The notes beneath the pieces are model-generated. The model did not search any database. It was not told where the DNA came from and saw only the letters and a list, made by a program, of their open reading frames with translations. A stretch of 63,554 nucleotides of DNA, filler included, from Dugesia japonica (taxonomy: Eukaryota), in NCBI GenBank assembly GCA_001938525.1. It is 5 parts of 5 records of this genome, joined end to end, with 100 filler letters (N's around TTAATTAATTAA, not from the genome) between each part and the next. Parts side by side here need not be neighbours in the genome. Positions count along the whole stretch, not along the records: positions 42,994 to 54,555 come from MQRL01636265.1; 4 more parts are not named here. One strand, written 5' to 3'. Below are positions 176-61,130 of the stretch, one piece after another. The position numbers and the translations under genes were made by a program. Within the stretch, counting starts at the first letter, position 1; every line of letters starts with the position of its first letter.

Positions 176-699
176 CAATGTTTATTAAAAAATCAGTGGT
201 TATCAAATAATTTGTGAATTCAGTGCTGAGTTGATTTCTGTTTCTTCGATGAACTGAAGTTTTTGTTTCACTGTGAAATTTTTCTGTCTTGTTTTTATGA
301 AGACGAATTAGTACTGAGCTCATTGTAAATTAATTAAAATTAGAGAATAATTTACTTACCTAGTGAAATATTCAGAAAGAAATATAAAATAGAGAGATAA
401 TACTGTAATTGAGATTGCAAATTATATATTGCAAATTAAAATACACCAAAATCTCGCTTGGCATTGTAGATATGTTCCAAAGAAACACGATACAAAGTGA
501 ATTTATATTTTCTAATAAATTAAACAGAAAACTTTATTTATATACATAAAAACAAAACAACTAATTGAATTTCAAATAAAATAATAAAAATTAATAATAA
601 AAAACAATAAATATGTGAGAAAACTAATCGGAATTTGTAGAAGAGTCTACTGGTACCTCTATCTCAATAATTTGTCCAAAGTCTACTGAACTGAATTCT

Positions 700-1720: not shown

Positions 1721-2335
1721 ATTTTCTTCATTGCATTACACTTTTTTTCATGAATGGCACACGTACATACCCAATCTTTATGGCGTCAACCACGCTTTTT
1801 TATTAGATCTCCAGTGGACAAAAATTCGATCCTATGAATAGCTCTTCATAGGTCTCGATTGGTAAATCAGAAACGGTTAAAATCTAAAAAATATTTAAAT
1901 ACCATAAAACAAGTTAATCAAAAATAAAAATTTTGAAAAAACAATGCAAGTTAGAAAATATTAGGCCGCACAACAAAAATTATTGGTAATTCAGTAACGA
2001 CAACCTCGAAAATACTCCAAATAAAACGACGCAAAGTGAGGTATTGTCATCATAAATTTACAAATATTCGACTTCAATAATTAATATTATTTGATTATGA
2101 ATATTTGATAGGATATTTTCCTTGTTCTTCCAAAAATTTACTGCTTGATGAAAGTTGTTTTTCTGTTGCCTTGCTTTATCGATATTTCCGTTTTAATGTA
2201 TACTACTGTCGTACTTTAAACCGATCTACGCAGTATAATGAAAATCTTTATTTTATTTTATTATAAAATCTTAAAGAAACTTTAAGAAAAGTTGTATTGA
2301 AAAATTTGAATAATTTGAATAATCATACTTTAAAC

Positions 2336-2569
2336 CAGTGATGGGCAAATGGTGTTTAGCGAAAAATTTTAAAAATTAAAAAACAACGTCAAACCCATGC
2401 ATCTCATTGATTTTCAATCTTACATAAAGAATAATAAGATTTTATATTTATGCTTTCTGTCATTTCCTAGGTTTTTTCTAAATTTCTCAAAAATAATTTA
2501 AATTTATGATTTTGGCACCCCTTTAAATTACGAAAAAAAATTTACTTTGACAAAGTTGGCCCATCTCTA
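2336..2569. mobile_element. hAT-type MITE
   Basis: Imperfect TIRs CAGTGATGGGCAAA / TTGGCCCATCTCTA; 8-bp TSD CTTTAAAC / ATTTAAAC; inserted into the second copy of a ~115-bp local duplication (TTTAAACCGATCTACG near 2215 and 2571). Confidence 0.75.
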
Positions 2570-2880
2570 ATTTAAACCGATCTACGTAGTTTTATGCAAT
2601 TGTTTATTTTTGGTATTAGAAAATTTTAAAGAAATTTTTTTTAAAATTTTTAATAATTTGCGCGCGCAAACTATTCGGGAAAGACTGGAGAGCTAATAAT
2701 TCCATTTTAGTTAAAACAATTTTTTAATAGGATTCTCAATCGCCAATGGTTATTCAACACATAACACAAAGAATAATTTCCCAAATCAAAAATGTGTTGT
2801 ATTTTATTATTTATATAAATTTTACAATTTACAATTTAAGTAAATTTAAATCCGGGTGTTGAGAAATATCCGATTTCTAG

Positions 2881-5800: not shown

Positions 5801-7664
5801 AATCTTTTTATTAAATTATTTTACAATTTCGATTATTTAATTGGAAATTTTTATGTCTTCTAACAAAAATTAATTTTTTTAAAAAAAAATTCATTCTAAC
5901 TTTAAATTTTAAATTATATAAATTTTTAAAATTAATTTATAGCAATCTAACTAATTTTTATATAAAATCTACTTTTGTCAGTAAAAATCCTCCGCGATCT
6001 ACTTTTTCTAAAAATTATGGATAAGAGAAGTTTTTTTAATAAAAATATTGTAACTATAACCTTTTCAAGCTGTACATAATGTTTTACACAGTATTTTTTG
6101 ATAATGTTGTACAAAAGTATTGACTAACATAATTTCTATGTATTAATGACCTCTGTTATCATATTTTTATCATATTGTTATCATATCGTCATCATATTGT
6201 TATCATATCTTCATCATATTGTTATCATATCGCCATCATATTGTTACCATATTATTATCACATAGTCATCATATTGTTATCATATTGTTATCATATCGTC
6301 ATCATATTGTTATCATATCTTCATATTGTTATCATATCGTCATCATATTGTTATCATATTGTTATCATATCTTCATCATATTGTTATCATATCGTCATCA
6401 TATTGTTACCATATTGTTATCATATTGTCATAATATTGTTATCATATTGTTATCATATCGTCATCATATTCTTATCATATTGTTATCATATCGTCATCAT
6501 ATTGTTATCATATTGTTATTATATTGCACAGCTTCACAATTAAGTGAAATGTTACGTAATAAATAAATAAAAATTGTTTGCATAAACTTAATTTGAGCAA
6601 AAAGATAAGTTTTTGCCAAAAGAAATTTAATCAGATTTTTTTCATTACACAGTAAACTTCAGTTAATCCAGATAAAGCAAATATTCAAATAAAATAAATT
6701 TTTATTAGATTGTCTGACTCACATGTTAAATTACTGTTTATCACTCGTGTTTTGCAATTTGCTTAAATTAACCAAAGTTTATTGTATTTGATTATTTCTG
6801 GCATTACTACAATTTGTTAGTTATTAGTTTTTTATAGGGACATCTGTTCATATGTACAATCCATGTACATCTCATTTTATGGTGTTAATTATGGAAATTG
6901 GAAAAGATAAGTCAAATATTATATTTTTTTGGCGATCGAAAAAGTCTTTATACGATCGAACGGTAGACCGCGATCGACGTTATTGACACCCCTGATCTAT
7001 AGGGTCTAAGATATTTTCCTGCCCCGGAAATCTCCTCCTCCGATATTTCCCCTCAACTTTACTGTGTCAACTTTGTGTATTAAATCGAACTAAAAACCAT
7101 TAAATATTAAAATTAAATATTCTAAATGTTTAATTTTAATTGGAGTTTTTTAATTTTATTAGCATTATGATTTTTGTAGAAAATTTGCTCACCATCGTTG
7201 CGTTTGATGGAATTTAGTCTATTTTGGGAAAATATGTTAATCGAAATCAACAAAAAATTCTCTATCGAATAGTGGGGTAGATAATCAAATTTGAGATAGT
7301 TGTTATTTCTTCGAAAATTTTTTTCTTGTTAGAAATGATCCGGAGGTCAATTGGTGTAATAATAACCAGTGTTAAAGAATTATTTTTGAAAATTTTCGAA
7401 ATTTGGATTGAAAATTTGAATTACAAATTAAAATATTTAAACAAAATGGACTTTCCCCGAATTCCATAAAAATTAAATTATTTTTAATAAACTGGACATT
7501 GCAGAGGAAAGTTTTAATCAAAATCGACCATCCCGAGAATTTTTTTACCAAAACTTATCAAAGTCAACTAAATTCGACCATTCCGAGGAAACGTTGGATA
7601 ATTTAAACCAAAATCAACCATTTAGTATTGCACACACACTATTAAACTATTAAATATAATTTCG

Positions 7665-7704
<40 letters not shown>

Positions 7705-10700
7705 TAGTCTTTTAAAATTTTGTAGAAGCTTTTCTCGAAAAAATACTTATGAAAAAAATACTTTGACAGAAAAAATACTTATTACAATATTAGGTTGTTC
7801 GGAAAGTAACTTCAGTTTTTTAGTAAAAGATAAGACTAAAATTTTTATTAATAAAACAATTTTTAATCGACAATGGATTGCTCATTTTAATCCGACACCT
7901 TTTGCGATCCACCAAGTGATTTTAAAATTTCATCCGCTTAGAAGTTCTTGTGCTTATTTACGAAAAACTGAGTCAAGTGAGTATTGATACCTTCAACTCA
8001 GTCAGATCCGACTGAGTTTTAATCCGTCACCTTTTGCGATCCACCAAGTGATTTTCAAATTTCATCCGCTTAGAAGTTCTTGTGCTTATTTGCGAAAAAC
8101 TGAGTCAAGTGAGTATTGATACATTCAACTCAGTCAGATATTCTGCAATCCAAAGAATGTTGCAGGTAGTGAAATAAATGAAAATCAGATGGAACTAGAT
8201 AGGGTGAGTATGGTGAAGATCCAATAGTTTTTGCTAAGTTATCAAACTGCTGTGAGGTCTGGCATTGTCATATACTATTTGTGATATATTATTTTCTTAT
8301 TTTACCAATGCCGGCCTCTTTATTTGGATGCATTCATTCAATGTGTCCAGTTGGTGACATTAAACCTCGGAATTAATAATTTGTATGCTTGATAGCATCT
8401 CGAAAGAAATTTCTCTTTGCCAGTCCCATCGAATAGAGAGCATAACTTTCCTGTAAAGTAGTGACCTTGAAACATGTTATTTTTGGAAATAGAAGCTGAA
8501 ATTATTATTTTAAGTCGAAGCACTACTTCTTAATTCCCTATTTGATAAATCAGCTAAAAATAAACGACTATTCCAGAAATTTGTCAACAAAATGTATTTT
8601 TTAAATTCAATTTTATTAAATTAATAAATTTTTCAAAATGCCCACAATTCAATTCTAAACATTTCTGTTTTTCCTTTCTAAATACAATGAAACCGTTTCG
8701 AATTCACATTCCATAATATTAATAATAAATGTAATTGTTTGTCAAAACTTTGCAGTATAAATTGATATTTTATTTATTCATATTTTAATATGGTATACCG
8801 CTAGGATAATGATGTAAATAATTGTATGCATATTTCGGAAGAGCTTCTAGCAAAGATCTATTTAATGCTTGCAGATAGATAGATTGGTTGAGGCAGTTCT
8901 GTCTTTTTATGTGCCCGATCACTTGATTTAATGTTGATGGAGTTTTATTTATGGGGTAAAGTGACAGCTTATTTTTAGCAGCCTGATAACATTAAAGTAT
9001 TAAAAGAGAAATATAATTATTGTGTGGAAAGCGAATTCAAAACGGTTCCATTGAATTTAGAAAGACAAAGACAGAAATATTTAGAAGTAAATTGTGAAAA
9101 TTTTAAAACTTATATTAAATTAATAAAATTGAATTCACGACTGATTCCCCGACAACTTTTTTTAGGTAAAAATTGTTTATTTTTAATTGCTCGAATAAAT
9201 AACGGATTCAGATATAGAGCTTGTTATTTGAAAAAAAGGTATTTCTAGCTTCTATCTTTAAAAATAAGGAAGTTATAGGTAATTTATGGTCACTATTGAA
9301 TTACACCCCAAATATTTAACAACTGTTATATAATAAGTAATTTTCTTTGATCACGTACCATTTTTGAGAAAGTTTCGTGGAATTTTCTTAAAGACTCATC
9401 CTGTATAAGAAAAATTTATAAATAATTATCACATCACAAAATTTTTAAAGAAATTGCTGATATCCTTAATATGAGATCAAATCTAGTAGATAATATTGGT
9501 ATAAATTTTCATGGCACACTTGTTAATGTATTCCAATGTTCCATGGAACAATTTAAAACAATGAGTTATTCTTTCCTCATAAATAAGATATTAATCAGCG
9601 AGGAATATATCAGCGAATAACCTGATGCAGTTAGTGTAAATAAATTGTTAATTAAAAAAATTATTAAAGTGAATTGATATGAATATAAATAATTACCTAG
9701 TATTGAGTCTAAAATCATATCTTCTGCATAATTAACAGTAAACAAGGCACATGGTTTCATGAGTACATGGATCGATATAAGAATAAAGTGACATATTGAT
9801 TGACTCTTTGGTCAATAATGGTCGATAAAATAGTACAAAGGGTTATATTAAACGAATGTGCTATTATAAGTTAATAATAATTTACAAGATTAATTATATT
9901 TATCTATTTAGCAAGATAAATATTTGGATGATGAAAGTTATAGTTCTGCTTCTGCGTATGATGATTTTGTAATTCGTTTAATTGAAGAAAATCAGGTTGT
10001 TAAATAAAGCTATTAGATTAATTTTTAAAATTTATTATCAGAGACGATATGAAAGATCAGTTGAAGTCCATCAAACTTTACTGTTACCTCATAAAATATT
10101 CCCTATACCTATTTCTAATATTAAAAAGAACCAAATAACACGACACCATGAAATTATTAAAACAACCAAAACAGACTCACTTACATTTATGAGAACGTAT
10201 CTTAAATGCAAACATAAAACCAATATTTCAAGGTCTTCAACAGTAAATACTAATAATTCTCGTAATTCAAACGAAACAGTCTATGTGAATAATCTAAATA
10301 GCTATAATAATCATTCTTCTCACGACAGAGATAATGATGACATAGGTAATGAATTCATTAAAAGAAGGGATAGTTCTACGAGAAATTCAATTATCCGCAG
10401 TAATGAAAATACTGAAAGTGAAATTAAAAAGTCATCTTTAGTGGAAAATGTTAATGAAAGTTTTCGTGATTCAAATGCTTTCTCAGAAGTTGAAGTGACA
10501 ATAGAAAATTCATCTTTCACTGAACAAGTTATCAGTCAACGCTCAACACGTAAACATTCTGATAGGTTTACAAATTATAGGAATCTTGAAGATCGATTGT
10601 CTCCTAATTCTTTAGAGAGAAAACTATTTGCTGAGCTTCATTATTATGATGGCTTACAAGCAGGTATGGAACAATTATTGCAGTCAGATAGATTCCAAGG

Positions 10701-10979
10701 CGTTGGATTTGCACAACAAGAAACAGTTAGTTTAGCCCAAATACTAAAAGCACGGCAATGGAAAGATGCTCAAGACAGTGAAACTAAACAATGTTTGCAA
10801 CAATTTACCAGTGCAATAGCCAATTTTAATGTAAGTTTAAGGGTATGAATAAACTTAAATTTTATTAAAATGAAAACAGAATCATATCCCTCGTCAACAC
10901 AAAAGGTCTGAAGTTATATCCAGTTCAAGTTCATACAGTTCTGAAACCATGTCTTCAAGTTCCTTACTTCATAAAAATG
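2881..10979 (+). CDS. CEP350: CEP350/CCDC187-like centriolar coiled-coil protein (partial; 5' end uncertain, 3' end cut by contig boundary)
   Basis: Phase-consistent GT-AG exons 2881-3020 (tentative), 3068-3718, 5446-5557, 5604-5712, 9912-9995, 10042-10830 (possible in-frame 36-nt intron at 10197-10232), 10880-10979. LSPNSLERKLFAELHYYDGLQAGMEQLLQSDRFQGVGFAQQETVSLAQILKARQ resembles, from recall, the conserved CEP350 block SPxxL...AEL...AQQE(S/T)VSLAQIIKAQQ. Confidence 0.78.
4041..4337 (-). pseudogene. 18S rRNA 3'-region fragment (dispersed rDNA pseudogene in a CEP350 intron)
   Basis: Reverse complement has 18S hallmarks TGCTAAATAG, CTTCTTAGA, GCTACAATGG, GAACGAGGAATTCCTAGTAAGCGC, GATTACGTCCCTGCCC, CGTCGCT. 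Only ~300 nt long and missing the universal TTTGTACACACCGCCC segment. Confidence 0.9.
4338..4700 (-). mobile_element. Ty3/gypsy pol fragment (region leading into the integrase zinc-binding domain)
   Basis: ORF 4364-4693 reads ...LSTWFDQLITVKH...LVPKSRRKALM...LGK*ANKTKMR, like the gypsy pattern W.QL....LVVPKSLR..VL...HLG.NKT. Abuts the 18S fragment. Confidence 0.5.
4954..5320. mobile_element. hAT-type MITE
   Basis: TIRs CAGGGATTCTTAAC / GTTAAGATCACCTG; degenerate 8-bp TSD TATTAGAA / CATTAGGA. Confidence 0.7.
6156..6525. repeat. 11-bp tandem minisatellite (GTTATCATATT / GTCATCATATC variants), roughly 33 units
   Basis: Directly visible periodicity; accounts for the spurious ORFs 6175-6543 and 6219-6566. 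Confidence 0.95.
7190..7630. repeat. Dispersed modular repeat, same family as 55060-56530
   Basis: Shares AAAATTCTCTATCGAATAG, ATTCCATAAAA and AAATTCGACC...CGAGGAAA modules with the contig-5 array. Confidence 0.55.
7668..7700. repeat. (TA)n microsatellite
   Basis: Direct; similar tracts at about 36345-36376 and 40680-40704. Confidence 0.95.
7788..8345 (-). mobile_element. Mariner (DD34D) 3'-end remnant
   Basis: TIR-like TATTAGGTTGTTCGGAAAGT; minus strand gives DNARPH and SSPYSPYLVPSDFHLFHYLQHSL (YSPDLAPSDYHLF motif); contains a 132-bp-period tandem duplication. Confidence 0.85.
8790..9405 (+). mobile_element. Tc1/mariner-superfamily transposase C-terminal remnant with right end
   Basis: Degenerate DR.IG.GS...ARSLDLMLMEFYLWG (WPPRSPDLxPxDFFLWG motif); ends GACTCATCCTG-TA. 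About 85 bp (9238-9323) has a near-identical copy at 4726-4812. Confidence 0.65.
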
Positions 10980-11023
10980 GTTATTGATAATTTATTTGTT
11001 TATAATTAAATTTTAATTTATTA

Positions 11024-11123
11024 NNNNNNNNNNNNNNNNNNNNNNNNNNNNNNNNNNNNNNNNNNNNTTAATTAATTAANNNNNNNNNNNNNNNNNNNNN
11101 NNNNNNNNNNNNNNNNNNNNNNN
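11024..11123. other. Artificial contig linker (44 N + TTAATTAATTAA + 44 N)
   Basis: Six-frame stop spacer; the same 100-nt structure occurs four times. Confidence 0.95.
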
Positions 11124-11149
11124 TTTCCTAATAAATTTAATTTAGAACC

Positions 11150-11830
11150 ATTTATGGAGTCCAATACATTACAAGAGCATGTTTTTGTAACAAAAAAACA
11201 TTAACCGCGTTTCTCTTCAATTGTTCCTATCACTTCTGCTTTGTTAACTTCCGCATCATTGAAACTTTGTCTTTTTAGGAATCTTTAAACTTTTTCTCTC
11301 ACTTTACTCGTCACATNNNATTTCTCGGCCTCTTGAAGATATTAAAGCGATATCTCGTTTAATGAATGGCCCTGACCAACTCATCTACAGATGGAGCCCT
11401 GCCTTTTGGGTATTCTCTTCTTAGATTTTCATTTACTACTATGCTCTCAGAAAATATCTCGTCATTTTCATCACTATCCTCATTTACATCTACCGCATAC
11501 AATTTCTGTGCACATCCTTCTGATATGACCAATTTTACCACATCCAAAACATTTTGTTGGCATCTTGTCAGGACGATTTCTACTTAAATGTCCTTTCTTG
11601 TGGCAAGTCCACATTTCACTTTTGAACTTTTTGGACTCTTTTTTGTGTTCTCATAACTCTGGCATGTCCAACACTGTGTTTCTGTTCTTTTCGTAACCCT
11701 CTCGATATTTTGTCTCCTCTCTCCGGAACGTTCTCCACGTGTTACACCCACGTAACTCTTTACTACGTTAATAGGTTCTCTTCTTTCTATAATTTCAACT
11801 AATGAGTGTTTCTTTTATATCTTCTACTTT
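11150..11830 (-). mobile_element. Decayed LTR-retrotransposon gag/protease-like remnant
   Basis: Purine-rich coding-like minus strand broken by stops; degenerate CWTCQ zinc-knuckle-like word near 11660-11675; composition like the gypsy copy at 25776-27571. Confidence 0.4.
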
Positions 11831-11922
11831 CTCCAATTTTCGTACGTTTTTCTCGTCTTCTAAATTTTTACTATCTGCACAAATTGGTAGCATTTTTGAC
11901 AATAACAAAGTATAAAAAAGTC

Positions 11923-11956
11923 AATTCCTGACGAAGACTAAGTCGATTTTCAAAAT
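11923..11956 (+). ncRNA. Degenerate minimal hammerhead motif (copy A) in a Penelope-type pseudo-LTR repeat (about 11915-12000)
   Basis: AATTC-CTGACGA-A-GAC TAA GTC-GA(TT), followed by the family tail ATCGAAGCTTTTATTTAATGAAATCT; GAAA box mutated. Confidence 0.5.
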
Positions 11957-41215: not shown

Positions 41216-42893
41216 TTTTTTACAAATACGTTTTATTTTGATCGAAGCTTTTTCTTTATTTTAATGAAATCTTAATCATGTTTAATAAACTAAGATAAAT
41301 TATGTTTAAATTTGCATATTTTAAAAATCATGCTGCTAAATATAGAGATGTCATTAATTAGAACAGGGCACTTAAATTAGTCTAAGCACATTTGATTGCT
41401 CAAGCAGATCAACAACTCACATGTGGGGTGATAGTTGCAGGCTAATCAAAATATTCAATATTTTGAACATTTGAAAAACTTCTCTTTTAAGTGTATTTAA
41501 CAAGGGTGTTAAAAAAATATTTCTCCATAAAATTTGAATGGAAATGATGGTAGACTGTATATATACTTAGAAGTATGTATTGAAAGTAGTATACTTGTAT
41601 ATTATTTGAGCATCATATTAGAAACTATTCTTTTCTAAAAATGGATTTATAAATGGATAAAAACCTATTTTATCAGTATTTAAGATGCCCCGATTAAAAG
41701 ATTACACTTTACGCAACCAACAGATAATAATTAAAACTCAAAGTAAGCTTAAATAATATATTTTTATACTATTTTGTAGTTAAAATGCTCGCGACGAATT
41801 ATTCAATTGCGCTTAATTCAAGAAAATGTCACATTTGGCGAAAGAATTATGAATAAATTGATCATTAATGAATTTGTTATCATTATACAATCTAGCTAGC
41901 ACCGAATATGAGGACAGTTATGTTCGAGAATTACACTGACCGATTATTGACATAAATGTGAAAATTGATAAACACTTTGTCCAAAATTAATTATAATATG
42001 GAAACAAAATCAAAATAATACAGGTATTTCTAATAATAATACTTAAATTAGTTACGGGTTATATTTTGATTTTGAAACTTTATTATCCATATTATTCAAG
42101 ATCTTATAATCAAATTGGTTTATATTAAATTGTTATTTTAAGGCATAACATGATGATCAAAGTTTATGACAAATTAAAAAATAAATCATTTTTCTCTCTG
42201 ATAAAAATGAAAATCGATAGTTTCAATCCAGAAAATCAATAAATATTAAAAATTTTAATGGATTAAGTTAAATTTAAAAATTATCAATAATTGTTTTTAG
42301 GATAAGTAATCTAAAATTGAGTTCTCCGTTGATAAATACGTTTCAGGTTTTGCTTTTAAATATAATATAAAAAAGATATAAACTGATTATACTGAAGTTT
42401 AATTATTGATTTCATTTCCTTTTATGCATTTCACATAAAATTATATGATTTTAAAATTTAAAAATTCCAAAAACAATAACAAGATAATCACTATTATTTC
42501 AATGTCTTTGATATTGATACAGTAACTTTGATTTATTGTTATCATTTAATAAATTACAGATTAAATTACAGATCTACCTTACTACTATTTTTATGTCATA
42601 ATTCTAATTCATTTTATTTTTAGCAAACGTTCTCAGATTTCAAACATTCAATAAGCATGATAAAATGATAAATTGGCTAATAAAATCGATGGAAATAACT
42701 ACTCGCTATAGATATTATAATTGCCAAATTATTATTCATTCAACTGCACATCAAAAATCAATCCAATTAACTATATCGCTCTTACAAATAATATGTTGAT
42801 AAATATCAATAATGAGCAAATGAGAATAGAAAATATTCATTAAATTTTATGCTCTCGAAAAGTAATATTAACATAAAAATAATGATAAAAAAA

Positions 42894-42993: not shown

Positions 42994-43612
42994 AAGAAGA
43001 AGAAGAATTTTCAATATAGATAAAACGTAACCATGATCAGGTTCGAAATTTGAATAATAAAAAAATAAAGAAAATATAAGATTTTAATTAATGCTTTATA
43101 CTTTTATTTAAAATTAAAATGGATAGGTTTAACAGTTAGAAAAAACTGTGATAGTAGGAAATACTAATAATAGTAGCAATAATTTAGCAGGGTCAGGCAT
43201 GATCAATTTTGGGTCGTAGACATTTCTATTGGGTCTACACAGAAAAAAGACCATATCAAAAGATACTCCACAAAAAAGTAAAAACAAATATAAATAAATA
43301 ATATTCTTGGCGTATTTAAAAACTAGGGCATATCTTATCTTAATATTACAATAATTTTTTAAAAAAAGTTTTATAAATCCAAATTAATTGATTAAATGAA
43401 TTTTGATTAGGATTCAATTATTCCAGGCAACATTCAATTATGATGAAAACGCTGTAATTTTTATGAAAACAAAAACTAATTATAACTATTGAATTTCAAA
43501 AAAATTACAATAACATTATTTATTTTACAATTACAATTATTTTGAGAATAATATTTCATTAAAATAATAACTTCGATCAAAATGTTGTTTTGTTTTTTTC
43601 TTTTTTGGTAGA

Positions 43613-43648
43613 TATTCGAATTTTTTACTACTGTCTTCTTCAGGAATA
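43613..43648 (-). ncRNA. Minimal hammerhead motif (copy D), degenerate, in repeat about 43525-43650
   Basis: Minus strand TATTC-CTGAAGA-A-GAC AGTA GTA-AAAA-AT-TC-GAATA; stem I TATTC/GAATA; G12 mutated. Confidence 0.55.
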
Positions 43649-44359
43649 ACATTATTTTTATCAGAAATAAATAAATAAATAGAAATTGTGTGACACAAAT
43701 ACCTTGGAATTCGCTAAATGTTCATAAAACATAACTGACAAAATTATTTAAAAAAATTTATTAAATTAAAATTATTATTCAATGATTTTACAAATCTTAT
43801 NNNNNNNNNNNNNNNNNNNNNNNNNNNNNNNNNNNNNNNNNNNNNNNNNNNNNNNNNNNNNNNNNNNNNNNNNNNNNNNNNNNNNNNNNNNNNNNNNNNN
43901 NNNNNNNNNNNNNNNNNNNNNNNNNNNNNNNNNNNCTGAAAGTGAATTGCTGTTTCAGATTTTCCACTGTTCTACAATTATTCTGCTAAAATCCACTTCG
44001 AATAATTTTCTTTGCTTATAATACTTGTTAAACTAAAGAACCTTGTTCACAAAATTACGATGTTGAAAACTGAGACAATTTATTTATTACTTTCCTTGAA
44101 TTCTTGGATTCTAATTTTTTTCTTTAAAACTATATCTATGTGAATTGAAATCTATTTGTTTCAAAAAACTTTTATATATTACTTTTCTTTGTTTATTACT
44201 AATTTCCTGTGGAAATTTTAACAATAATTTATTGAACGTCAAGCGTTCCGCAAAACACTGATTAGGAAAATATAATTTAGTGATTCTGTAATCACTTTAA
44301 TATAATTTTATTTATTGAATTATTTGATCTTTAATTTTATAGTGATAATTTATTTGTAG

Positions 44360-47300
44360 AACCACCACAGTTTAAAAATTTACCTCAGTCTGATAACTGT
44401 ACTACATATTGTTCAAGTAAACAGCCTCATTTATTTCGATGTGAATTGAGTTCTGATTATTACACAACAAGAGATGTTTTAGTTGAAAAGTTTTGGCTGG
44501 TTAACAATATTAGACTTGATTCACTACCATACCACAGTTTATATTTTAAGGATGACACAGTATGTAAATTTTATGATATTGATTATTGAAAATAAATAAC
44601 TTTTTTAGATAGGTCTTAATCTAATGCCAGTAAAATCAAATATATCAGAATACGATGTTGCTTTGAAATTGTTGTTGAAAAATGCAAAACTAATTTGTCG
44701 AGTTAGATTATTATATCCTGGGTCAACAGACATGACCGATACTATATTGATTCGTGAAAATCGAATAATCTACGATACCTTTTCTGATTCATCAATAATG
44801 AATCATTTTGCTGCAGAAATAAAACTTGATTGGGAACCAGTTATTGGTATTAGATTTTTAATAATTTAAATTAATTAATAATGATAAATAAAATTAATTG
44901 TGTATGCATGTGTGTATAGAAAGACCTATACATTTTAAAAATTGAAATAAAAAATGAAAACCTTTTTAATCGATAAATTTAAAATAAAAAGAGAAAATAT
45001 TCGGTTGTAACATAATTTGCTATGATTTTTTAATAAAAATTTGTACATTTAAAAATAATTGTTATTTAGAACAATTATTTTTACAATAATAAAAAGTTAA
45101 TCAATAATATAACTTCCATCAGTGAATTGCTGTTTATCTTTTTAGCTAATTTTCTGCCTGCTTGACTATCATTTTTTGGAGTAGCCAGTACCTTGAAGGT
45201 CGAATGTGCCATTTCGAAACTTGCTGAATAAGTATTTATAGATACATGTAGTGATATTGATTAAAATATTCCAACGCCAACGAGCGTTTTTCCTAACAGT
45301 GTGAAATTGCTTAGCAGTACTCCAGGCCATTGCACCTTATCCGTATTCAGCATAAATATCTCGGACCATTTCTGCAACTTTTAGACCACAATTAGAAACG
45401 AACAAAAGTAGATGTCTAAAATGCTGTTTTTTTTATCTACTTGGCGTTGCATTTTTAATATCTCTAAGATTTAAATAAAATTTACTGATATAAAGTTACT
45501 GAGATTTCGTAGAGCAGAAAAAGGATTTCAAATAAATGTTAGTATTCAAAAAAATAGTGTGGTTAAACAAACTACAATTTACAATAAAAAAATCAAATCA
45601 CAGAAAAATAAATCCTACCGCTAAAATCAATTTTTACTGACTACTGTCTTAGAGCTCACTTTCGGAGCAATATGGCATTTATTTTTTAATCGGAGCTTGC
45701 ATATTTAATTTGATATCAATTTAACTACTTCAGCTATTTTATCTGATAAATAAAAGTCTGGAAAAGACGAAGCAAACTATTTTAGATTAAGAGGTTATGT
45801 AACACGTTTGTATTGATTTTCTAACTTTTTTATATGACTTTCTATAATCATCTTAATAGTGTAGTACGAAAAACTTTAGAAAATGCTTATCGTTAATTAT
45901 TGTAAATTTGTTAATACTGTTGGGGTTCCACCTGAGTTGAGTATCGAAAACCGGACGGCTGGAGAAAAACAACCCTCAGAGGACCCTTTCAAGAATTTAA
46001 CCTAAAGCCCCTAGTTTAGGTATTCAGCGTAGAGTGGTTGACCTCCTACTTCATGGGAGGTGCACACTCGTACACCTTTAGTTTGGGTTCATCGATTTCC
46101 CTTATAATCATAATAAATAAATTGAACAAAATTTAGTAAAGAATGTCTATTGAAATAACATTTACAGTTCCTCCAGAACACCAGGGTCTAACCACTGGGT
46201 AGGTTCTTCTAATATAAAATCGAAAACAGCATTATCGTCATTGTTATCCCATTTAAGCCAAGATGCGTTTCCTAGTTGCTGGGACAAGTCAGCTATGTAG
46301 TGTTTCAGAAAATTAATCTTATGCTGCAAGAGTCGCTGGGTTTGTTCTGCTAAACCTTGGGTTTGTTTGGCCAGATCGCTCTGTTTCTTTATAATTAAGT
46401 CAATTTTTGTAATCAATCTATTCCGCTGAGATAGGTGTTTTAAAAGGGCACGCTCTGTCTGACGTTGAGCGTGTCGTTCTATTAGTAGTTTCTGGATGAG
46501 ACGGTGACAGCGCCGGAAACTGATTGGTAGGTGAATACGGTGCACTAAATAATAAAGCATTAAAAAGTTTAACTCTGTTATGGAATTAATTCTTTTACCA
46601 GAAGACAACCCGAGGTATATTTATTTAAGACATGAAAACAATTTATTAATTAAAACAATAAATATGATATCACGGCCGCAGAGTTTGAGTCTCCTTATCT
46701 ATCATAAGTGGCTCTAAAGGCATTTTCCCCTTAGCCTGAGGATGTCATCTACCAGTTTATTCTCTCGGTCATGGAAAGACTGGATAACTTCAGCGAAAGA
46801 TTCGAGCTGGGACTTCCATATGCGTTCTTGTGCGTGCGATGCCTCAGCTTCCTTACGGATGGCAGTGCACTTTGCTCGGTAGCGTTTTACNNNNNNNNNN
46901 NNNNNNNNNNNNNNNNNNNNNNNNNNNNNNNNNNNNNNNNNNNNNNNNNNNNNNNNNNNNTGGGTATCCTCACTGGATTCCCTCATTTTCTTGGTGGGAG
47001 CTATGTTTCGATTTAACGAAGAGTGCACTAAAAAGAAATATTACGATTAGATTTCGATTAACTCTTCATGACAAGACAATATTAACTGATACACAATCAC
47101 ACCAAATAAGGCTGACACTGAACAGAAATGTATGACCATATAAAGCAATGACTATTAAAAAAACAATATATAAACCGACCAAATGATTTAACAAGCAATA
47201 TTTATTTGTGATAACTAAAATCACTAAATGGCAGAATAGAGTAAAACAGAGATCCTCATTCTTTGTCAATATATACCTTAGAAACTAATGGAAACATCTC

Positions 47301-50300
47301 GACGAAACAGCTCGGGTCCGTCTCGTCGAGATGTTCGATTTTCCCTTTTATTAAGACATGAGCCAGCAGTTGTCTCAACTTGGCCGCTCTCCTTTCTTTG
47401 CGGATTAATCTTAGAGTATGGATGAATCCGGGCGTCATTATCTAAACTAGGCAATTATTATAAACAAATAAAAATATCACTCGTCATGGATACTTGACTG
47501 AGGGCACTGAAATGCAGAATGACAAACTAGTTCCATAAAGAAAATAAAGGGATACAGAAAATCTCCATAAATCTATGCTGTGATAATACCACGAGATTTA
47601 CCCACCATCCCTTTTTCAAAAGGAAACAGAATAATAATAATTTAACAGAAGAATAAAATCGAACTATATCAACTTATTATTAAAACACACATAAGATCAA
47701 TTTCAAGAATAGAGCAACAGTAATTAGTTTCGACCATTATTGCTCGGGTTCCGTGTTGGTCGTGAGATCTCGATTATCAGTGTTTTCCACACCCGTGGGT
47801 TCCTTAACACCCCAGAGCAAGTTTGTAATAAAAGCTTGCACTGCTGGGGGTGAGGCCAAAGGTTGATAACTGAAGGGGGTTACGTGGTTACGAACCTGCC
47901 CAGTCCAATTTTGGTGATTCTGTCTTTCCCCAAAAGTTTGGGCCTCTACGGGGGGCAAATTGGATCGGTCTAAAAGGATACCCGCATCTCGATGGTATGG
48001 ATTGATGTGGCGTCGAAAAATCATGCGACACGTCCGTCGATCGTAAACTCGTTCCCATATGACATCCACTAAAATTATAATACAAATAGACAATAATTAA
48101 AATGTTCACCCAATCTTAGCAAAGAGAATTAGATTAAAATCATAAAATTTATATTTTAATTCATTTAGATTTATAATGCAACAGCATATCCTCCGGGAGG
48201 TCAAGGACTCCATAATCTGGATAACCGAGGGGGGACATCCCCGAGATACACTGTAAATCCGTCTCATCTGGATGTTCCACCAACTCGGGGAAGAAAACAT
48301 GACCGGTCAGTCGCCGACAGCGTATGCGTTCTCGTAATTCAAATACACAACACAACACGGTCCGTAATTCCAGGACTAATATTTAATTTATTACCTAATA
48401 AAAATTAATAAATAGATTGAATCTTTCGAATAGGTTCAAAGTCAGAACAACCGCAACCAAGCAAAATATGTTTCACTATGATGTAACCCATTTAATCGCG
48501 TTACTGACCTAGCCATTAAGCCCAGTAGTATTTAGCAACAAAATATTCATTAAAATTAGAGTTGTCGATGGGGTGTGGTTTTGGNNNNNNNNNNNNNNNN
48601 NNNNNNNNNNNNNNNNNNNNNNNNNNNNNNNNNNNNNNNNNNNNNNNNNNNNNNNNNCTTTGTGCTGAAACGTCGTGTTTAAGCTACTTGTACTATTATT
48701 AACCAATTCGTTGAATTTAAAAACGGAATTTATCATTCCCTGTTCTTTAATAATATATACCATCTAGTATATGTTAATAACATTGCAGTGGTTGGTTTAA
48801 TAATTTAGTTAAATTTTAACTAATAATCGGGAGTATTTAATTTACCGCTCACATCGGTTGCTGAGTGATTTTACAACACGATCTTGAGCTGAATAAAGAT
48901 GATGTTAATTCACTTACATACACACACAAGGCAGAAAATACAACGAACTGGTATGCAATGACGATAGATAGCATATAGTTGACTAGTTGAACCGTATGGT
49001 TAATTTCCCGTTTAACATGCATGGCGAACAAAACAGATTTTGTTGTTGATTTGTGAGTGATATTTATGGTTGCGAAAACCCTTATTGGATTTTCTTTTTC
49101 CTTAATAGAGATCACACCTCTGCATTGTTTAGCCTACAACAATCTCGGTGTGTACTTTAATCTCGATAAATTATCATTTGACATATGCGGCTCAAATTTC
49201 ACTGTATCCATGTTATGAGAATGACATTGGTTTTATTTATTTGGTGACAGAATTCAGTAATCATTAAATAAAATAAATTGTGATAAAATTTCTATTACTA
49301 TAAATTAACATTTCATTCTTAATTTATACTAAAAATTATTTGCCAAAAGTTTTACTTANTGTGGAATATAGAATTACTGCAACGGTTTTGTAGACAAACA
49401 ATTGAATTCCTCTGATAGTCAGCTGATTTTCTTCCTTCCTTTTCTTGGCGGTATTTCTCGATTTATTTCTTCACTACTAGCTGATTATATTCCGTGAGTT
49501 AATCGACACACAATGTAATCTTACCAATTGGGTTTCCTTTAAAATAATAGTATGAATTGATTCTAACTGTGCGGAGTCACTAAGTCCAAATAAAAAATTC
49601 TTTGATGATTCTTTCGCTGAGTTTTATAGATCTTTATATAGGATTATTTCTGCATCCTCACTTCTTCCGGATTGGGTGTTTATTTTTAATTGAAATCATG
49701 GATTTCTGATTGAATCTCATGTCGACTTCTAGATTATTTCTACAATTTTCTGTGCTTCTAGTGGCAGCTATTTTTGGATCGTCAGGTGAGTTTTAGTTCT
49801 TTGTTTTATTTTTTAATTTTAGATTGCTATTGGAACAATCTTAAAATCTTTGCGAAGATCCTCTGGATGGTGGTAATATTCTCTAGTGTCAAAATTCTAA
49901 TGACCCAATCCAAATCCTTTCCAAATTTTCTTTAACCCAGCTCCGATGACTTCCCAACGCAAAGTTATTCGTATAAAACGAATTTTTTTTCTAATTTTAA
50001 TTTAGTTTTTTTCCAAATTAATTAACATTTTTTTTCTTGTAATTAGTTATTTTGATTAATGATTTTCTTCATTTTATTATTGATTTTGATAATTTCTTCT
50101 AATTAATGCGATCGACGTGAATCATCTTCATCCACCCAATTTTTCTATAACCATCTTTTCTGTTAATGGTACACCCCTTTAAGAGTTTGTACATAGTGTC
50201 TTGTTTATGATCGTAATTGTTTTCTTTCTCAGAGTGCCAGTTGTGATGCTCTTAATGTTCTTCTTTATGGATTGGAACTTTTGTGGCTTGACTTCATTAA

Positions 50301-52735
50301 CTGGGTGTTTCACCCCAACAATACTATAAATGAATTAATATAATTTTGTAAAATAAAACTAAAGAGTTGAATAAATTTTAAAAAATCACTGTTTTGTTTT
50401 CAATAACTATGCCCTCTACAAAGAAATTGTATTTCTACTTTGAATTTTGTTAATTTCACTATAAATTTCCTTTGATACAACATTAACTTATGTTGATCGT
50501 GTATTTGAACATTAGCAATTTCTATCAAAATTTTAAAAAATTAAACGTTTTAAAATGAAAAACTGGTTGTTTTATTTACAGTAACAAATTTTTAAAATAA
50601 ATTATTTATTTTAATTAAATAAATAAATATTTTATTAAAAAATTTATTTTTCTACGATTAAAATTTTTTATCTAGGTTAAAATTTATAAATGAAATAAAA
50701 CAAAATTAATAGCATCTAACTTTCTTAAGCTTTTAATAAAATATTCAAAAATTTTTACTCAAATAGAAGTAACAGCTAAAAAGAATAATTTTCTCAATAA
50801 TTTCAACGACATTATTATCGACAAGTAAATTATTTTTAAATAAGATATTTTAATTTATTAGGTCGGTGTATAAATTCGTGTGGTTATTTCAAGCCATAAT
50901 ACATTTTTATTTGTATTATTCAAAGTTAATCAGTTATATATTATTCTCAATTGCGCACTACTTATTCCCATTTGAAATAATCAAAGGATTTTGAAGCGAA
51001 GAATTCATCAAGCTAATTTTAAACCTCTGTTTTACTTTTGAAGGAAATCCCTGAAAGAGAATGCTTAAGGTTCCGGCAGAGATGATAATCCGATGTAACA
51101 AGATTGAAAGTGTAGGGCGGATGTGAGAGAGTCTACCAATGCAGCTCTTGAACTCCCGTTTTCGTTCGGTTTGTCATGCAAGAGAATGATTTGGTGTTTT
51201 AGACTCGTTAGTTTGAGCTGTATTGCTTTTTTTAGGCGTTGNNNNNNNNNNNNNNNNNNNNNNNNNNNNNNNNNNNNNNNNNNNNNNNNNNNNNNNNNNN
51301 NNNNNNNNNNNNNACATTCAATCATATGCACTGCATTGTCTGCCGCGAATGAAGATATGGCTTTGTTCAAAGTTTTGATTGCTTGCCAGGGCTAAGCTGT
51401 TGCTTCTTTTTTTTAAATTGACATATCATCGATGATTATATGAGATAGAAAGGATTGATGTTGCTACTGAGTATTGTGTTGTCATGTAAGTAAATAAGCA
51501 AAACAGTTGACAAGTTGAAATTTGTAGATGTTGGAAAAAATAATGTGCTATCTATACTCCCAGTTTCTGCACTTTGGTATAGATTTCATATGTCTGACAA
51601 TTTTTGAGTGATTCAATTCCATCTCTCTAGCCAACTCTCGAGTTGTTTGGTAAATATTTACATGAATTTATTCATTCAATCGATCTTCATCCAAGTCGGA
51701 AAGCCGTCTAGTGCGGGAAGTATTGCGCAGATCAAAATTGCTCTGCTTAACGCGTGAATACTACTTTTGCGCCGTCTTTTCAACAACAGAGTCTTTACCA
51801 TACACAGCACAAATGTTTTTTGGCGGCTTCAGTCGTTTTGCGATCTCGGTTGAATTCATAGAGAACGAAAAATGTACTGTTTTTTTTCAATCTGGCATTC
51901 AATCAGATTTGTCACAAAATTTTGTTATATTTTTATTTCCTAGATTTCTAATAAAAGAAACATGAGTCATAAGGTACATAACTTAATATTTGGTACTTGA
52001 AAATAATTTCAGACACTCAATTTCGAAATAGTTTTATTTTTTTACAAAAACCGCACAAATTTATGCACAAACCCAATGTTTAAAAATTTAGCCAGAATCG
52101 AAAAATTGTGTCCCTGTACATACAATGTAACCGGGAAAATCTTCAAGAAACAGTGAGAAATGTTATTGTTGATGATTATGACAAAGAAATCAACATATTA
52201 TAATTATTTATTTATAATTATTTGTGCTGCAACTATTGTAATTTTGTGATTAATTGTAATTAATAATATGGTTAATAGAAAATTTATTATTTTGTGAATT
52301 TTAAAAATTTTTATTAATTTAATTTTAATTATTTTTATTTTAATTCTTTTTATTTTTACAGTTGAAGGCAGTTATACGTGGATTATATTTCTAGCCATTG
52401 CTATTCTATTAATTGTAATGTTTATATTTTTACTAGTGAAATTCACATTAAAAGGTCAAGGAAAATCTTACCAAAGTAAGAAAATATAAAAGGAAATTAA
52501 TTGCTGTTTTTTTCATAATATTTATAATTACTGTTTGTTTATCGATATTAATATTTTTTTCATAATGATTAGTGATAAAGATGACAATTAACAGTTGATA
52601 TTTTGAGTAAACATAATAATAACTAACTTATTTTCAGTTGAAAAGCTGGAAATCGCTAAAGGATATAATCGAGATGAAGAAATTATTGAAAATGAAACAA
52701 TTAAGCCATATCTTCGATCGTTAGTTCTTAAATAA
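44360..52735 (+). CDS. Ig-domain single-pass membrane protein with L1CAM/neuroglian-like cytoplasmic tail (5'-partial; last exon uncertain)
   Basis: Phase-consistent exons 44360-44559, 44609-44846, 52362-52475, 52638-52719 (or read-through to TAA at 52735). Ig-like PPQF...LFRCEL...KFWLVNN...LICRV; TM WIIFLAIAILLIVMFIFLLV; tail GQGKSYQIEKLEIAKGYNRDEEIIENETIKPYLRS resembles L1-family GGKYxVxxKE...ETFGEYRS. Confidence 0.72.
45110..45450 (-). mobile_element. Mariner N-terminal HTH remnant
   Basis: GLKVAEMVRDIYAEYG*GAMAWSTAK and FSKFRNGTFDL. Confidence 0.7.
46162..46544 (-). CDS. Cassette ORF1, ~127 aa, coiled-coil-like hypothetical protein
   Basis: Body begins after TTATTTAG|TG CAC; a 29-nt intron (46545-46573) would create ATG; heptad-like LIIKKQSDLAKQTQGLAEQTQRLL; acidic Trp-containing tail; no internal stop. 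Confidence 0.6.
46714..47069 (-). CDS. Cassette ORF2, ~106 aa, coiled-coil-like hypothetical protein
   Basis: Micro-exon ATGAAGA (47069-47063), 35-nt GT-AG intron, body 47027-46714 in frame; frame holds across a 70-nt N run. Confidence 0.6.
47256..47438 (-). CDS. Cassette ORF3, 60 aa, EHxDETDxxC-family small protein
   Basis: LRQLLAHVLIKGKIEHLDETDPSCFVEMFPL aligns without gaps to ORF5; upstream micro-exon-like ATGACGA|GT at 47487-47481. Confidence 0.6.
   Translation of the reverse strand: MTPGFIHTLRLIRKERRAAKLRQLLAHVLIKGKIEHLDETDPSCFVEMFPLVSKVYIDKE
47737..48068 (-). CDS. Cassette ORF4, ~110 aa hypothetical protein
   Basis: GC-rich open body beginning after ATTTTAG|TG GAT (DVIWERVYDRRTCRMIFRRHINPYH...); a shorter overlapping frame is also open, so the frame is not certain. 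Confidence 0.5.
48161..48375 (-). CDS. Cassette ORF5, ~71 aa, EHxDETDxxC-family small protein
   Basis: Body after ATATTAG|; CRRLTGHVFFPELVEHPDETDLQCISGMSPL aligns to ORF3, with synonymous GAT/GAC differences at both Asp codons. Confidence 0.6.
49380..49960 (-). mobile_element. Possible RTE-like LINE AP-endonuclease remnant nested in the 4.4-kb element
   Basis: Highly decayed; SEDAEIILYKDL*NSAKESSKNFLFGL loosely recalls APE (APTxxSEDEEIEEFYEDL...IMGD). Confidence 0.3.
50858..52076 (-). mobile_element. Full-length decayed mariner (about 1.2 kb)
   Basis: TIRs TTAGGTCGGTGTATAAATTCGTGTGGTT / AACCGCACAAATTTATGCACAAACCCAA; NICAVYGKDSVVEKTAQK, QTTRELAREM, IILLHDK; many stops. Confidence 0.88.
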
Positions 52736-53699
52736 TTATTTGTTTGAAAATTCTTCACTTTAAAAAATCACAAATCGATAAATTTTATTAAGCTTTTAAT
52801 TTTTAAATAATTTCTAGGAAATTAATTTTTTCATAAATCTAATTACTTTCTTATAAAATGTACTGGTTAATAAATTTTTATAAAAAACTTTTTTCATGAA
52901 TATTTTCTATTTGTAGACAAAATGATTTTTAATTTAATTAAAGTATACCATGACGTTTTATATGATATTGCGATATCATTCGTCAAAATGTTTAATTTAT
53001 GATGATATTTTTATGAAATTTGTTTTTGGTAGAATTCTTTCCACTATTTAAAAATTTTTGTTTCTGTTTTAATAAGGATTCAATAAATATTGATGGTTTT
53101 AAACAACAAAATGAAACTTAACATTATCCCCAGTCAGCTTATCGAAACAAGCATGTTGGTATAAATTAAACATACCCTCTTTTTACCACAAACCCTGTTA
53201 ACGTCAAAAAAGGAAAGATTTTAATGTGGCAGTGTAAAGAGATTTTACTGTATTTTAGTATTTTCTTTATTTTTAATTTTTCTAAATTTCAACAGTAATT
53301 TTCCAAAAACTTCGATTATTTTAAAAAAAGTCATTAAGGCAATTAATTCATAAAATTTCCGTTATTTTCTATTTTAAATATTAACATTTAGATACAATAA
53401 CGTTTGTCAATTGAAATTTAAATACTGTTGTGTTATTTCAAACATTTGGTATTCTTTTATATTTGGCGAAATATTTTTAATAATGATTATCCATTTTATA
53501 GGTGATTATAAAGTTGTATTGAGCTTTATGTATAATTTAATTGACAATTATTAAATTTTGTTTAAATGTAACAATTAGTAACATGGATTTTCTTTTTGTT
53601 CTTATTATTCGTTTAAATAAAAATCAGCTTAGTTTATAAACTACAGAATGATTGATTTTTATTTTTGTTAATAACATAATAGTTTTCTTTGAAATTATG

Positions 53700-54230
53700 T
53701 ATTTTATTGGTTACAAATGAAAATAATGAATCCAGATCAAACATCAGAACAAATAAAGAACTTTCAAGACAAATAGTTCAAATGAAAAACTTTAATACGA
53801 TATATATCGAGAGAAAAAACCCAAAAAAGCTATAAAATTGAACTTTAAAGAAACGCATTTCTGGAAACGAACTAAAATAACCAACAATTATGTTTCATTA
53901 ACCAGAAAAAGAATTTAGAGGTTTTCAGAGAACTTTTTAGAAAAAATATAAACTATGATAGCAGTCGTGATTGAACAAACACGCGATAATGTCGTTGAAG
54001 TCAAAAATAACTATGAATTAGTTGGAAAGGAAAAACTAGGGGTTAGAATTTCTTATGATGTAGTTATTCAACGTGTACCCCAACCACTGGAACTGAAACC
54101 TGATATCAATTTACTACATGAGAATGCATTGCATATCCGTGGATTTGAATGAGGACAATCTATAAAATATTGTAATTTTAGACAAAAACCTTATGCCATG
54201 TTAACTGACTTTAAACCAATCAACCTCCAA
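53700..54230 (+). mobile_element. Possible L1/Tx1-type LINE ORF1 remnant
   Basis: Decayed coding-like stretch ...YELVGKEKLGVRISYDVVIQRVPQPLEL...; family assignment from recall only. Confidence 0.3.
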
Positions 54231-54555
54231 ACCTTCAAAATTTTTAATATATTATATTAGTATTTATTATTATTATGACTATTATTATACATATTTTTAA
54301 AATTCCAAATTCAATGTAAAAATCAATTTTTAAATTTCTTTTATAAATCCTTTTTATTTTTGCTGTGGGAAATTATGCGGTAGTTAGTAAAAGATAAATC
54401 AGAAAACTGTTTTTCCACACACGTTTTTATTTTACAATTATAAACAATTTCATTTTTAACACTGATTTATAGAAGCCAGTTTAAAAATATCATTTTCAAA
54501 CAATATTTACTTTTTTATTTTAATCCAAATTAGATGTTTTTGGAATAAAATTGAT

Positions 54556-60255: not shown

Positions 60256-61130
60256 AAAAAACCCCACTTTTCTGGCCGACGAATTGATTCAAGTGACTTT
60301 TTTTATCTTCCAAGAAGAAAGGGTTTTTATCATGTAAGTAAACAATAGTCGGAGGCCGCATAATCTAGCGAGTACCCTGAATGAATCAAAATATCCCAGG
60401 TCCGTTGCAGAAGTTTCTGTTGGGTGTCCAAAGACAAGTGGGATCTAGCATTATTTTGATGAAACCTGATACTTTTTTTAGTCCACGTTTGGTTTATTGC
60501 TTCCTTTAAATAACTTGAACTATATCTCCAAATCAATAGTTTGGTTTTCAGACAAAGGCTCATAGTAAATGAATTTCTTGAAATTCCACCAAATGCATAA
60601 CATTTTCTTTCTAGGTTGTATACTGGCTTTAGCAACGGTTAATGGAAAATCTCCTGGCTTACACTGTAATCTCTTACGCTTAACATTATTACGTCATATC
60701 TATTTTTTGTTCCCGGTTACCATTTGCTATTCTTTATTATAGAATCGCAAGCAGAAATTTTGTCTGATATTTTTTCTCCGTTAATTCATGCGGCACCCAG
60801 ATATCGGCTTTGGAAGTAATTCCAAAATAACTGAATACTGTTGAATAATTAATATAAATTATTTCTCTAATCTCTTCAGTTGTTCTATGGAGATCCCTTT
60901 CAATTAGCACCAATGTTTTGTTACTTATCTTAATAAATTGTCTTGAACGTGTTTCATCGGTAATATTAAAGGTTTTCTGGAAAAAATCTATGAACCACTT
61001 ACGACACTTAGAATCATCAACATCACTCTCACCGCACACAGAATATATCTTTTTTATTGTTCTGAGAAGGAATTTTGCTCTTCCGCAAATAATAAAGCAT
61101 GATGTGCATAAAATCTTCTTTTCCATTTAA
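60256..61130 (-). mobile_element. Decayed mariner transposase
   Basis: KIYSVCGESDVDDSKCRKWF, DIWVPHELTEK (WVPHEL), FHQNNARSH, HSGYSLDYAASDYCL. Confidence 0.88.

Follow-up and report, generated by a model that had tools for sequence, protein, structure and literature searches.

Small open reading frames in a 4.4-kb planarian element, possibly a giant solo long terminal repeat, may be alternative last exons behind one spliced leader

Short inverted ends of the form TG...CA, combined with a 4-bp duplication of the target, are the pattern of long terminal repeats (LTRs), and LTRs standing alone (solo LTRs) are commonly viewed as spent promoters. Here, we analyze an element with such ends at positions 45918..50320 of a 63,554-nucleotide stretch of DNA from Dugesia japonica (GenBank assembly GCA_001938525.1), hereafter the window, in which five parts of five records are joined by filler letters; the element lies in the part taken from MQRL01636265.1 (positions 42,994 to 54,555). 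The published systems cited below by accession or DOI are represented by excerpts of each source, and all statements about them refer to those excerpts. Among the closest described systems, the gypsy-like planarian element Burro exceeds 30 kb in total, has an internal region of at most 25 kb and occurs in thousands of copies, while Ogre LTRs measure 1.9-6.5 kb (PMC6431247); given these sizes, an LTR of 4.4 kb is within the known range. The DNA transposons Ginger1 and Ginger2 have TGTNR ends and 4-bp target-site duplications (TSDs), terminal inverted repeats (TIRs) of ~40-300 bp (44-297 bp in table rows), and the targets CCGG/CCGT or RTATAY (PMC2836005). A planarian giant element was reported to aid host stem cells via an acquired domain (cited in PMC13465017), and accessory proteins of such elements can thus matter for the host.

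A preliminary description of the element, made from the sequence, had proposed five small genes within it and left its nature between a giant solo LTR and a Ginger-like transposon. The best explanation of the whole, to which we give an even chance, is a giant gypsy-type solo LTR with its open reading frames (ORFs) as alternative last exons on a shared leader.

Coding ORFs and the splice-acceptor pattern

The five GC-richer ORFs with AT-rich spacers that had been reported on the minus strand were recovered at 60-127 codons, with a GC content of 0.46 in the bodies and 0.28 in the spacers (Table 1). The five bodies are stop-free, as had been stated, apart from 70 masked nucleotides of ORF e (46891-46960), where this cannot be checked; a second masked stretch (48585-48657) and an undetermined base at 49359 also fall within the element. 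A sixth ORF (d), missed by the preliminary description, is probably present: it is hydrophobic, with a 19-residue Kyte-Doolittle maximum of 2.51, and net neutral. On the minus strand between 46162 and 48382, there are seven stop-free frames of at least 60 codons compared with a shuffle mean of 2.5 (p=0.004), and shadow frames of 60-115 codons are present on the plus strand too. In ORFs a, b, e and f, GC content peaks at the first codon position and is lowest at the second, which is the GC-poorest position of ORF c too. ORFs a and c have 15 of 36 residues identical (z=11.8, equaled by 0 of 2000 shuffles) and the motif HV..EHxDETD..C...MxPL in common. Their identities by codon position are 20, 19 and 14, so third positions diverge most, and 7 of the 15 identical residues are on different codons. 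The ORFs are coding, and ORFs a and c are paralogues conserved at the protein level; the remaining 14 ORF pairs gave no signal of paralogy. A further ATG-started frame of 57 amino acids (aa) is located within the element on the minus strand (48852-49022), with a hydrophobic stretch, C-terminal cysteines and no Pfam match, and is possibly a seventh small gene.

Acceptor-like sites were selected by a filter (T-rich, G-poor, TYAG end) that was fixed after the pattern had been spotted by eye, and which the acceptors of ORFs a and c fail. The dinucleotide TG follows such a site in 7 of 11 cases on the minus strand of the element, in 0 of 5 on its plus strand, and in 15 of 287 in the remainder of the window (Fisher p=1.2e-6). 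Four of these sites, at 48068, 47223, 47027 and 46544, open 110, 52, 104 and 127 codons in phase 1, respectively. The number of TG acceptors opening at least 50 codons in phase 1 reached a maximum of two in 5000 block shuffles and was zero in 115 kb of flanking strands. Minus-strand donor consensus sites were found only at 49524, 49359 and 48917, all of them upstream of the ORFs; each ORF is closed by its own stop, and a consensus donor among the ORFs is absent. The donor-like site 49359 reads TAAGT after its first base, which is N in the window. Ahead of it, a stretch lacking ATG (shuffle p=0.006; elsewhere, 113 of 5076 windows) starts just below the TATA-like boxes at 49640 and 49628 and the CCAAT at 49675.

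Since this stretch ends in A and the exons begin with TG, an ATG start codon would be made at the junction. From the acceptor pattern, the upstream donors and the ATG-free stretch together, we infer one leader followed by a row of alternative last exons, and we regard this shared-leader mechanism with a splice-made start as likely. What had been presented as five free-standing genes thus looks like a set of 3' exons used in alternation after a common leader. The ORFs did not prove to be exons of a single nested host gene, one of the outcomes that the preliminary description named as refuting it, given the separate stops and the lack of consensus donors among the ORFs. A branch-point-like motif was uninformative, being present at 4 of 7 acceptors and 135 of 281 controls.

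Searches with the ORFs yielded neither homologue nor family nor fold, in agreement with the earlier failure to assign them to a known family. No Pfam family was recognized at the cut-off for the six ORFs, which gave sub-cut-off coiled-coil matches only; neither reverse transcriptase nor integrase nor gag was read in the six-frame translation, in line with their reported absence. No homologue of an ORF was found among 5.8 billion proteins, and no credible one among 1.84 billion representatives. For ORF f, none of three candidates was a homologue (lengths 69-223 only), and the Atlas gave no usable match; P0001 (E 8e-5 in the set of 1.84 billion) was rejected as its relative, being an unlike 980-aa repeat protein that matches 30 acidic residues. 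The 3' part of ORF e retrieved unnamed Atlas clusters at 0.90-0.92, which are a lead only, with recognition below threshold. Viral contigs gave no match for ORFs f and b, the 3' part of e, or a and c combined; ORF d was not searched there. The combined a and c profile reached at best E 1.5 against sequences of the PDB, and the corresponding structure model (pLDDT 58) was too poor for a fold search. For ORF f, the structure prediction is a single long helix with an acidic tail (pTM 0.43), with no fold match at E up to 0.001 among viral or solved structures.

Termini and the repeat family

The element comprises 4403 bp with a GC content of 0.36, compared with 0.26 in the remaining window. The TG...CA ends and the 4-bp ATAC duplication given in the preliminary description match exactly at 45914-45926 and 50312-50324. 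The inverted repeat is limited to 9 bp, the longest stretch that the terminal 300-bp arms have in common; both ends read TGTTG, and the target reads AATACT. Among TG-started 9-bp inverted pairs situated 0.5-10 kb apart in the whole window, 6 of 476 have a 4-bp direct flank, and among the five such pairs with at least five G/C, the element's pair is the only one that does. Taken alone, the end signature therefore exceeds chance expectation only modestly. Neither blastn nor tblastx revealed a second copy within the window, Rfam gave no match, and the end regions fold no better than shuffles (45918-46100, z -0.72 and -0.42 on the two strands). L001, considered as a relative via the left-end motif, has only 21 motif bases in common with the element and was rejected as a chance match (motif matches: 0 in viral contigs, 1 in metagenomes).

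Part of the sequence is present in 20 of 24 listed runs (8 studies, one organism); none of these holders is recorded as RNA, which says nothing about expression. Four runs were aligned to the element region at 86% likeness: contigs of X1, X3 and X4, and RNA reads of X23. The alignments covered the best-supported 40 of 590 differences, 12 of 63 indels, 15 of 85 joints and 24 of 1481 loose ends, and absences there weigh little; contig depth is not copy number and was taken only as a sign of many relatives. Contigs of X3 and X4 cover the flanks, where these are unique, to a depth of 9-22, as against 53-19,469 per bin in the element interior. The 4113 X3 contigs, counted over the whole aligned stretch with flanking repeats included, comprise 364 at 99% likeness or above, 911 at 95-99%, 1756 at 90-95% and 1082 below 90%. 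Three X1 contigs exit the element exactly at 50320 into different flanks (agreement 0.65), and in one X3 contig the left end is preceded by a different AT-rich flank. At the locus itself, the left junction is spanned in X3 and X4, and the right one in X3. Relatives with the same termini are thus found at dispersed sites (X1, X3, X4), with no single contig spanning a whole copy. These data support the proposed integrase-type insertion with other genomic copies, since both ends occur with other flanks in what is a large, diverged family. No empty site was seen among the best 15 of 85 joints.

Depth is similar at the two termini (~700-2,050 at the left, 720-830 at the right) and rises within the element at two blocks (Table 1), at the 3' part of ORF e (~46741-46790), which is common to very many relatives, and at the ORF c motif near 47310. 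Inside the block at 49762..49833, a donor consensus (49786) and a strong acceptor are situated 37 nucleotides (nt) apart on the plus strand (49786-49822), possibly a mini-intron or splice sites of a plus-strand RNA. Seven family differences fall inside ORFs, four synonymous and three not (among the best 40 of 590), which are too few to assess selection. Some relatives differ from this copy by one base in length where ORF e ends (near 46722), and the present copy is not pristine. In X4, one contig without the 929 bases 48516-49446, among them the putative leader donor, represents a deleted family copy. Contigs of X3 and X4 join 47307 to ~48255-48270, that is, between the paralogous ORFs a and c.

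Table 1. Features of the element and its flanks, in window coordinates
Feature	Coordinates	Strand	Basis and remarks
Left TSD copy, ATAC	45914..45917		sequence
Left terminus, 9-bp inverted repeat TGTTGGGGT, TG start	45918..45926	+	sequence; one X3 contig has a left end behind another flank
Block common to a far larger set of diverged relatives	45973..46020		depth ~36,000-42,000 at 45980 and 46006 vs 700-2,050 at 45951-45963
ORF f, 127 codons from TTTAG/TG acceptor, phase 1	46162..46544	-	predicted 86-residue helix/coiled coil and acidic tail
ORF e, 104 codons from TTTAG/TG acceptor, phase 1	46714..47027	-	coiled-coil-like; 70 nt masked
ORF d, 52 codons from TTTAG/TG acceptor, phase 1	47066..47223	-	hydrophobic and AT-rich; the ORF with the lowest certainty among the six
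ORF c, 60 aa, own ATG at 47438	47256..47441	-	paralogue of ORF a; TTTAG acceptor three bases before the ATG
ORF b, 110 codons from TTTAG/TG acceptor, phase 1	47737..48068	-	sequence
ORF a, 71 codons from acceptor-like ATTAG, phase 1	48161..48375	-	paralogue of ORF c; TG rule not followed in this copy
Putative shared leader exon and donor-like site	49354..49620	-	~49620-49360, 261 ATG-free nt ending in A
Promoter-like pair of the ORF cassette: CCAAT 49675, TATA-like 49640, 49628	49621..49676	-	motif match only
Block common to many relatives, midway between two outward-facing promoter-like pairs	49762..49833		bin depth 3,800-5,600
Outward-facing promoter-like pair: CCAAT 49905, TATA-like 49972	49904..49979	+	motif match only
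Right terminus ACCCCAACA, CA end	50312..50320	+	sequence; three X1 contigs exit at 50320
Right TSD copy, ATAC	50321..50324		sequence

Nature of the element and proposed mechanism

A solo LTR, in one orientation or the other, is the probable identity of the element. In accordance with a Ty3/gypsy solo LTR, it combines TG...CA ends in a short inverted repeat with ATAC on both sides (4-6 bp expected) and with dispersed related copies. In the short contig pieces aligned, neither gag-pol nor a paired copy was seen. The CCAATs of both promoter-like pairs are contained in CCCAATCC, a sequence that was chosen after the fact and does not recur in the remaining 115 kb of strands; if the LTR is read on the plus strand, the outward-facing pair is a candidate promoter of genomic RNA. 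In the proposed mechanism, a promoter near 49640 would drive a minus-strand RNA, whose 261-nt leader would be spliced from the donor-like site 49359 to any chosen downstream acceptor. With the start codon made at the A/TG junction, each mRNA would encode a single small protein, and the unspliced RNA would yield none of the A/TG proteins. The genomic RNA would come from a second promoter, near 49972, that faces outward; the cassette would then lie antisense inside a U3 (unique 3' region) of ~4 kb. This copy would stem from a full-length element whose two LTRs had recombined. The predicted proteins would comprise two coiled coils, two His/Cys/acidic paralogues, one small membrane protein and one of low structure. 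Purely by analogy with the accessory genes of retroviruses and errantiviruses, they would most likely regulate expression or spread of the element or counter host silencing.

Several observations weigh against this explanation. In two X4 contigs, the right end is joined to the left end over ~7-13 AT-rich bases at single-copy depth; a plain solo-LTR model predicts no such joins. No flank resembling a primer-binding site (PBS) or polypurine tract (PPT) was seen at the other ends, which are AT-rich (best 24 of 1481 loose ends). Pairs of CCAAT and TATA arise by chance 7 times per 57 kb per strand, or about once per 8 kb. Plus-strand AATAAA or ATTAAA downstream of 49972 is absent, and a downstream AATAAA is present on the minus strand only, so the orientation of the LTR is not fixed. 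In the RNA run X23, 113 reads from 13.6 million (about a quarter of the run) matched, none of them at 99% identity or above, and none of the best 15 of 85 joints is a splice joint or has X23 support.

The splicing pattern has its own irregularities, beginning with the N at the first base of its key donor, 49359. The AG/TG sites at 49579, 47506 and 47117 open just 5-23 codons; the site at 47506 (TTCAG/TG) is a second in-frame acceptor for ORF c, separated from it by two stops. Four of the six ORFs fit, the exceptions being ORF a, which lacks the TG and any ATG in its first 45 codons, and ORF c, which has its own ATG. In ORFs b and e, in-frame ATGs occur no later than codon 16, and ORF f, with no ATG after its acceptor, has one in frame 16 nt upstream, at 46560; with these ATGs nearby, the three ORFs could start without splicing.

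Some of the same observations would suit a non-autonomous, short-TIR DNA element that is mobilized by an integrase and resembles Ginger in its chemistry but is not a Ginger member, its 4.4-kb unit moving in trans with the spliced cassette as cargo. We consider such a DNA-type element unlikely. It would agree with the right-to-left joins in X4 and their 7-13 base spacers, with the lack of a PBS or PPT among the few other flanks (best 24 of 1481 loose ends) and with the similar depth at both termini; TGTNR termini and 4-bp TSDs, both present here, are features of Ginger as well (PMC2836005). The TIR of 9 bp, however, falls far short of the 44-297 bp of Ginger elements, and the target AATACT is neither CCGG/CCGT nor RTATAY (PMC2836005), so the Ginger-like option of the preliminary description is not upheld. 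Moreover, neither Pfam nor six-frame reading recognized a gypsy-integrase-like transposase or a remnant of one inside this copy, and the outward-facing promoter-like pair near one end fits an LTR more easily.

A solo LTR with minus-strand sense is improbable. It would consist of a U3 of ~700 bp (50320-49620), a short R (repeated region) ending past the AATAAA at 49467, and a 3.5-kb U5 (unique 5' region) holding the ORFs before the PBS. Sense small ORFs ahead of gag are known in the MDG1 group (PMC11952523), and the best TATA boxes of the element are those at 49640 and 49628 on its minus strand, which an AATAAA follows at a distance of 160-170 nt. The RNA reads of relatives near the left end are one-sided (15:0 at 45980 and 14:0 at 46006), as minus-strand RNA would give in a stranded library; these reads stem from diverged copies, however, and strandedness of the library is not established. 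This arrangement would also require a 3.7-kb strong-stop cDNA and the suppression of a poly(A) site present in both LTRs.

It is very improbable that the ORFs form an operon-like cassette resolved by spliced-leader (SL) trans-splicing of the host, instead of cis-splicing to their own leader. Spacers of 40-370 nt and a strong acceptor for each ORF resemble flatworm operons. The flatworm SL reportedly ends in AUG (as the title of Cheng 2006 has it) and would thus need phase 0, which stays open for just 15, 0, 4 and 20 codons in ORFs b, d, e and f, respectively; hence the model does not fit, and it leaves the TG bias unexplained, even though SL trans-splicing as such occurs in planarians (PMC12582326). 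Least probable of all is that the ORFs are decayed remnants or captured host-gene exons with an incidental acceptor pattern. The empty homologue searches, the lack of visible expression of this copy and its signs of decay might suggest this; against it stand the TG and phase statistics, the protein-level conservation of ORFs a and c, the family depth peaks on the 3' part of ORF e and on the a/c motif, and the own stop of every ORF with no donor.

Returning to the giant LTR with a spliced cassette, we tentatively propose, at somewhat less than an even chance, that the terminal repeat is a complete multi-gene unit (a divergent promoter, a non-coding leader and five or six splice-started accessory genes), or else a new integrase-mobilized element without an internal region. 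If so, each of the solo LTRs dispersed in the genome would be a stand-alone accessory-gene cassette in which the choice of splice site picks the protein, as in complex animal viruses, and the layout of complex retroviruses, with one leader and many acceptors, would extend to an invertebrate retroelement. The genome would then contain many unannotated protein genes missed by ATG-based ORF finders and protein databases. The model predicts junctions from 49360 to 48068, 47223, 47027 and 46544.

Surroundings and comparison with known systems

On the plus strand of the window, 9982-10848, probably together with 3058-3735, is a host exon of a centrosome-associated protein, whose product we take to be CEP350-like. 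The only named match of 9982-10848 is from Capitella teleta, with 47% identity over 60% of a 91-residue region (E 2.6e-5). Together with the AT-richness, this one weak match suggests an invertebrate host, possibly a planarian. Two long exon-like ORFs on the minus strand (30937-31233 and 37360-37881; 98 and 173 aa) matched no Pfam family at the cut-off, and a homologue search with the exon at 37360-37845 was empty. Tandem arrays are located at 1-175 (13-bp unit GAACAATTAGGTG, 13.5 copies) and 6154-6526 (11-bp unit TGTTATCATAT, 34 copies). Decayed transposon remnants at 50961-51900 (-), 60333-61126 (-), 19500-21065 (+), 26259-27283 (+) and 39554-40157 are mariner-like, hAT-like or gypsy-integrase-like by eye from their translations, the tested fragments being below the Pfam cut-off. 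Other high-copy repeats (contig depth 700-13,900) lie within 250 bp of the element, at 45300-45673 and 50536-50722.

No literature account of a spliced multi-ORF cassette in a terminal repeat was found, in a coverage that excluded Grohme 2018 and Lee 2026 on Burro, Repbase, and Dfam; the excerpts of PMC8532177, PMC11410931, PMC13524379, PMC13465017 and PMC13238120 contain no LTR anatomy. Burro (GYPSM1) is similar in scale (multi-kb LTRs), in its thousands of copies, in having accessory ORFs and in its AT-rich animal host, whereas its accessory domains (BIR, BCL2-like, MATH, ankyrin) are located in or just before the internal polyprotein; the likeness drawn here concerns these described features, and a spliced multi-ORF cassette inside the LTR is not described in the excerpts of that account (PMC6431247). 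Ginger1 and Ginger2/Tdd resemble the element in their TGTNR ends, 4-bp TSD, size range of 2.6-7 kb and non-autonomous copies, and differ from it in their TIR of 40-300 bp, their target and their integrase-like transposase (PMC2836005).

The env gene of the springer subclade of Drosophila errantiviruses offers a parallel for the proposed start codon, since splicing of a short upstream exon completes it there too; in springer, however, the codon is divided as AU/G and belongs to a single env gene in the internal region, whereas the element would have A/UG and at least four small non-env ORFs between its termini (10.1101/2023.08.03.551782). The sORF1 and sORF2 of the MDG1 group are likewise small accessory ORFs of gypsy elements, one of them encoding a short membrane protein, but they lie in sense upstream of gag, and most sORF2s possess an MGxxxS/T motif and a basic patch, neither of which is found in the shorter, 52-codon ORF d (PMC11952523). 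Genes with their own promoters antisense to gag-pol, for which a regulatory role is proposed or shown, are known from the plant elements Retand, Grande and RIRE2 and, as HBZ, from HTLV-1 (human T-cell leukemia virus type 1). They are situated between pol and the 3' LTR and would be lost in a solo LTR, and those of Retand mostly encode TRP28 (PMC11963269). The element, unlike these, holds five or six small ORFs inside the terminal unit itself.

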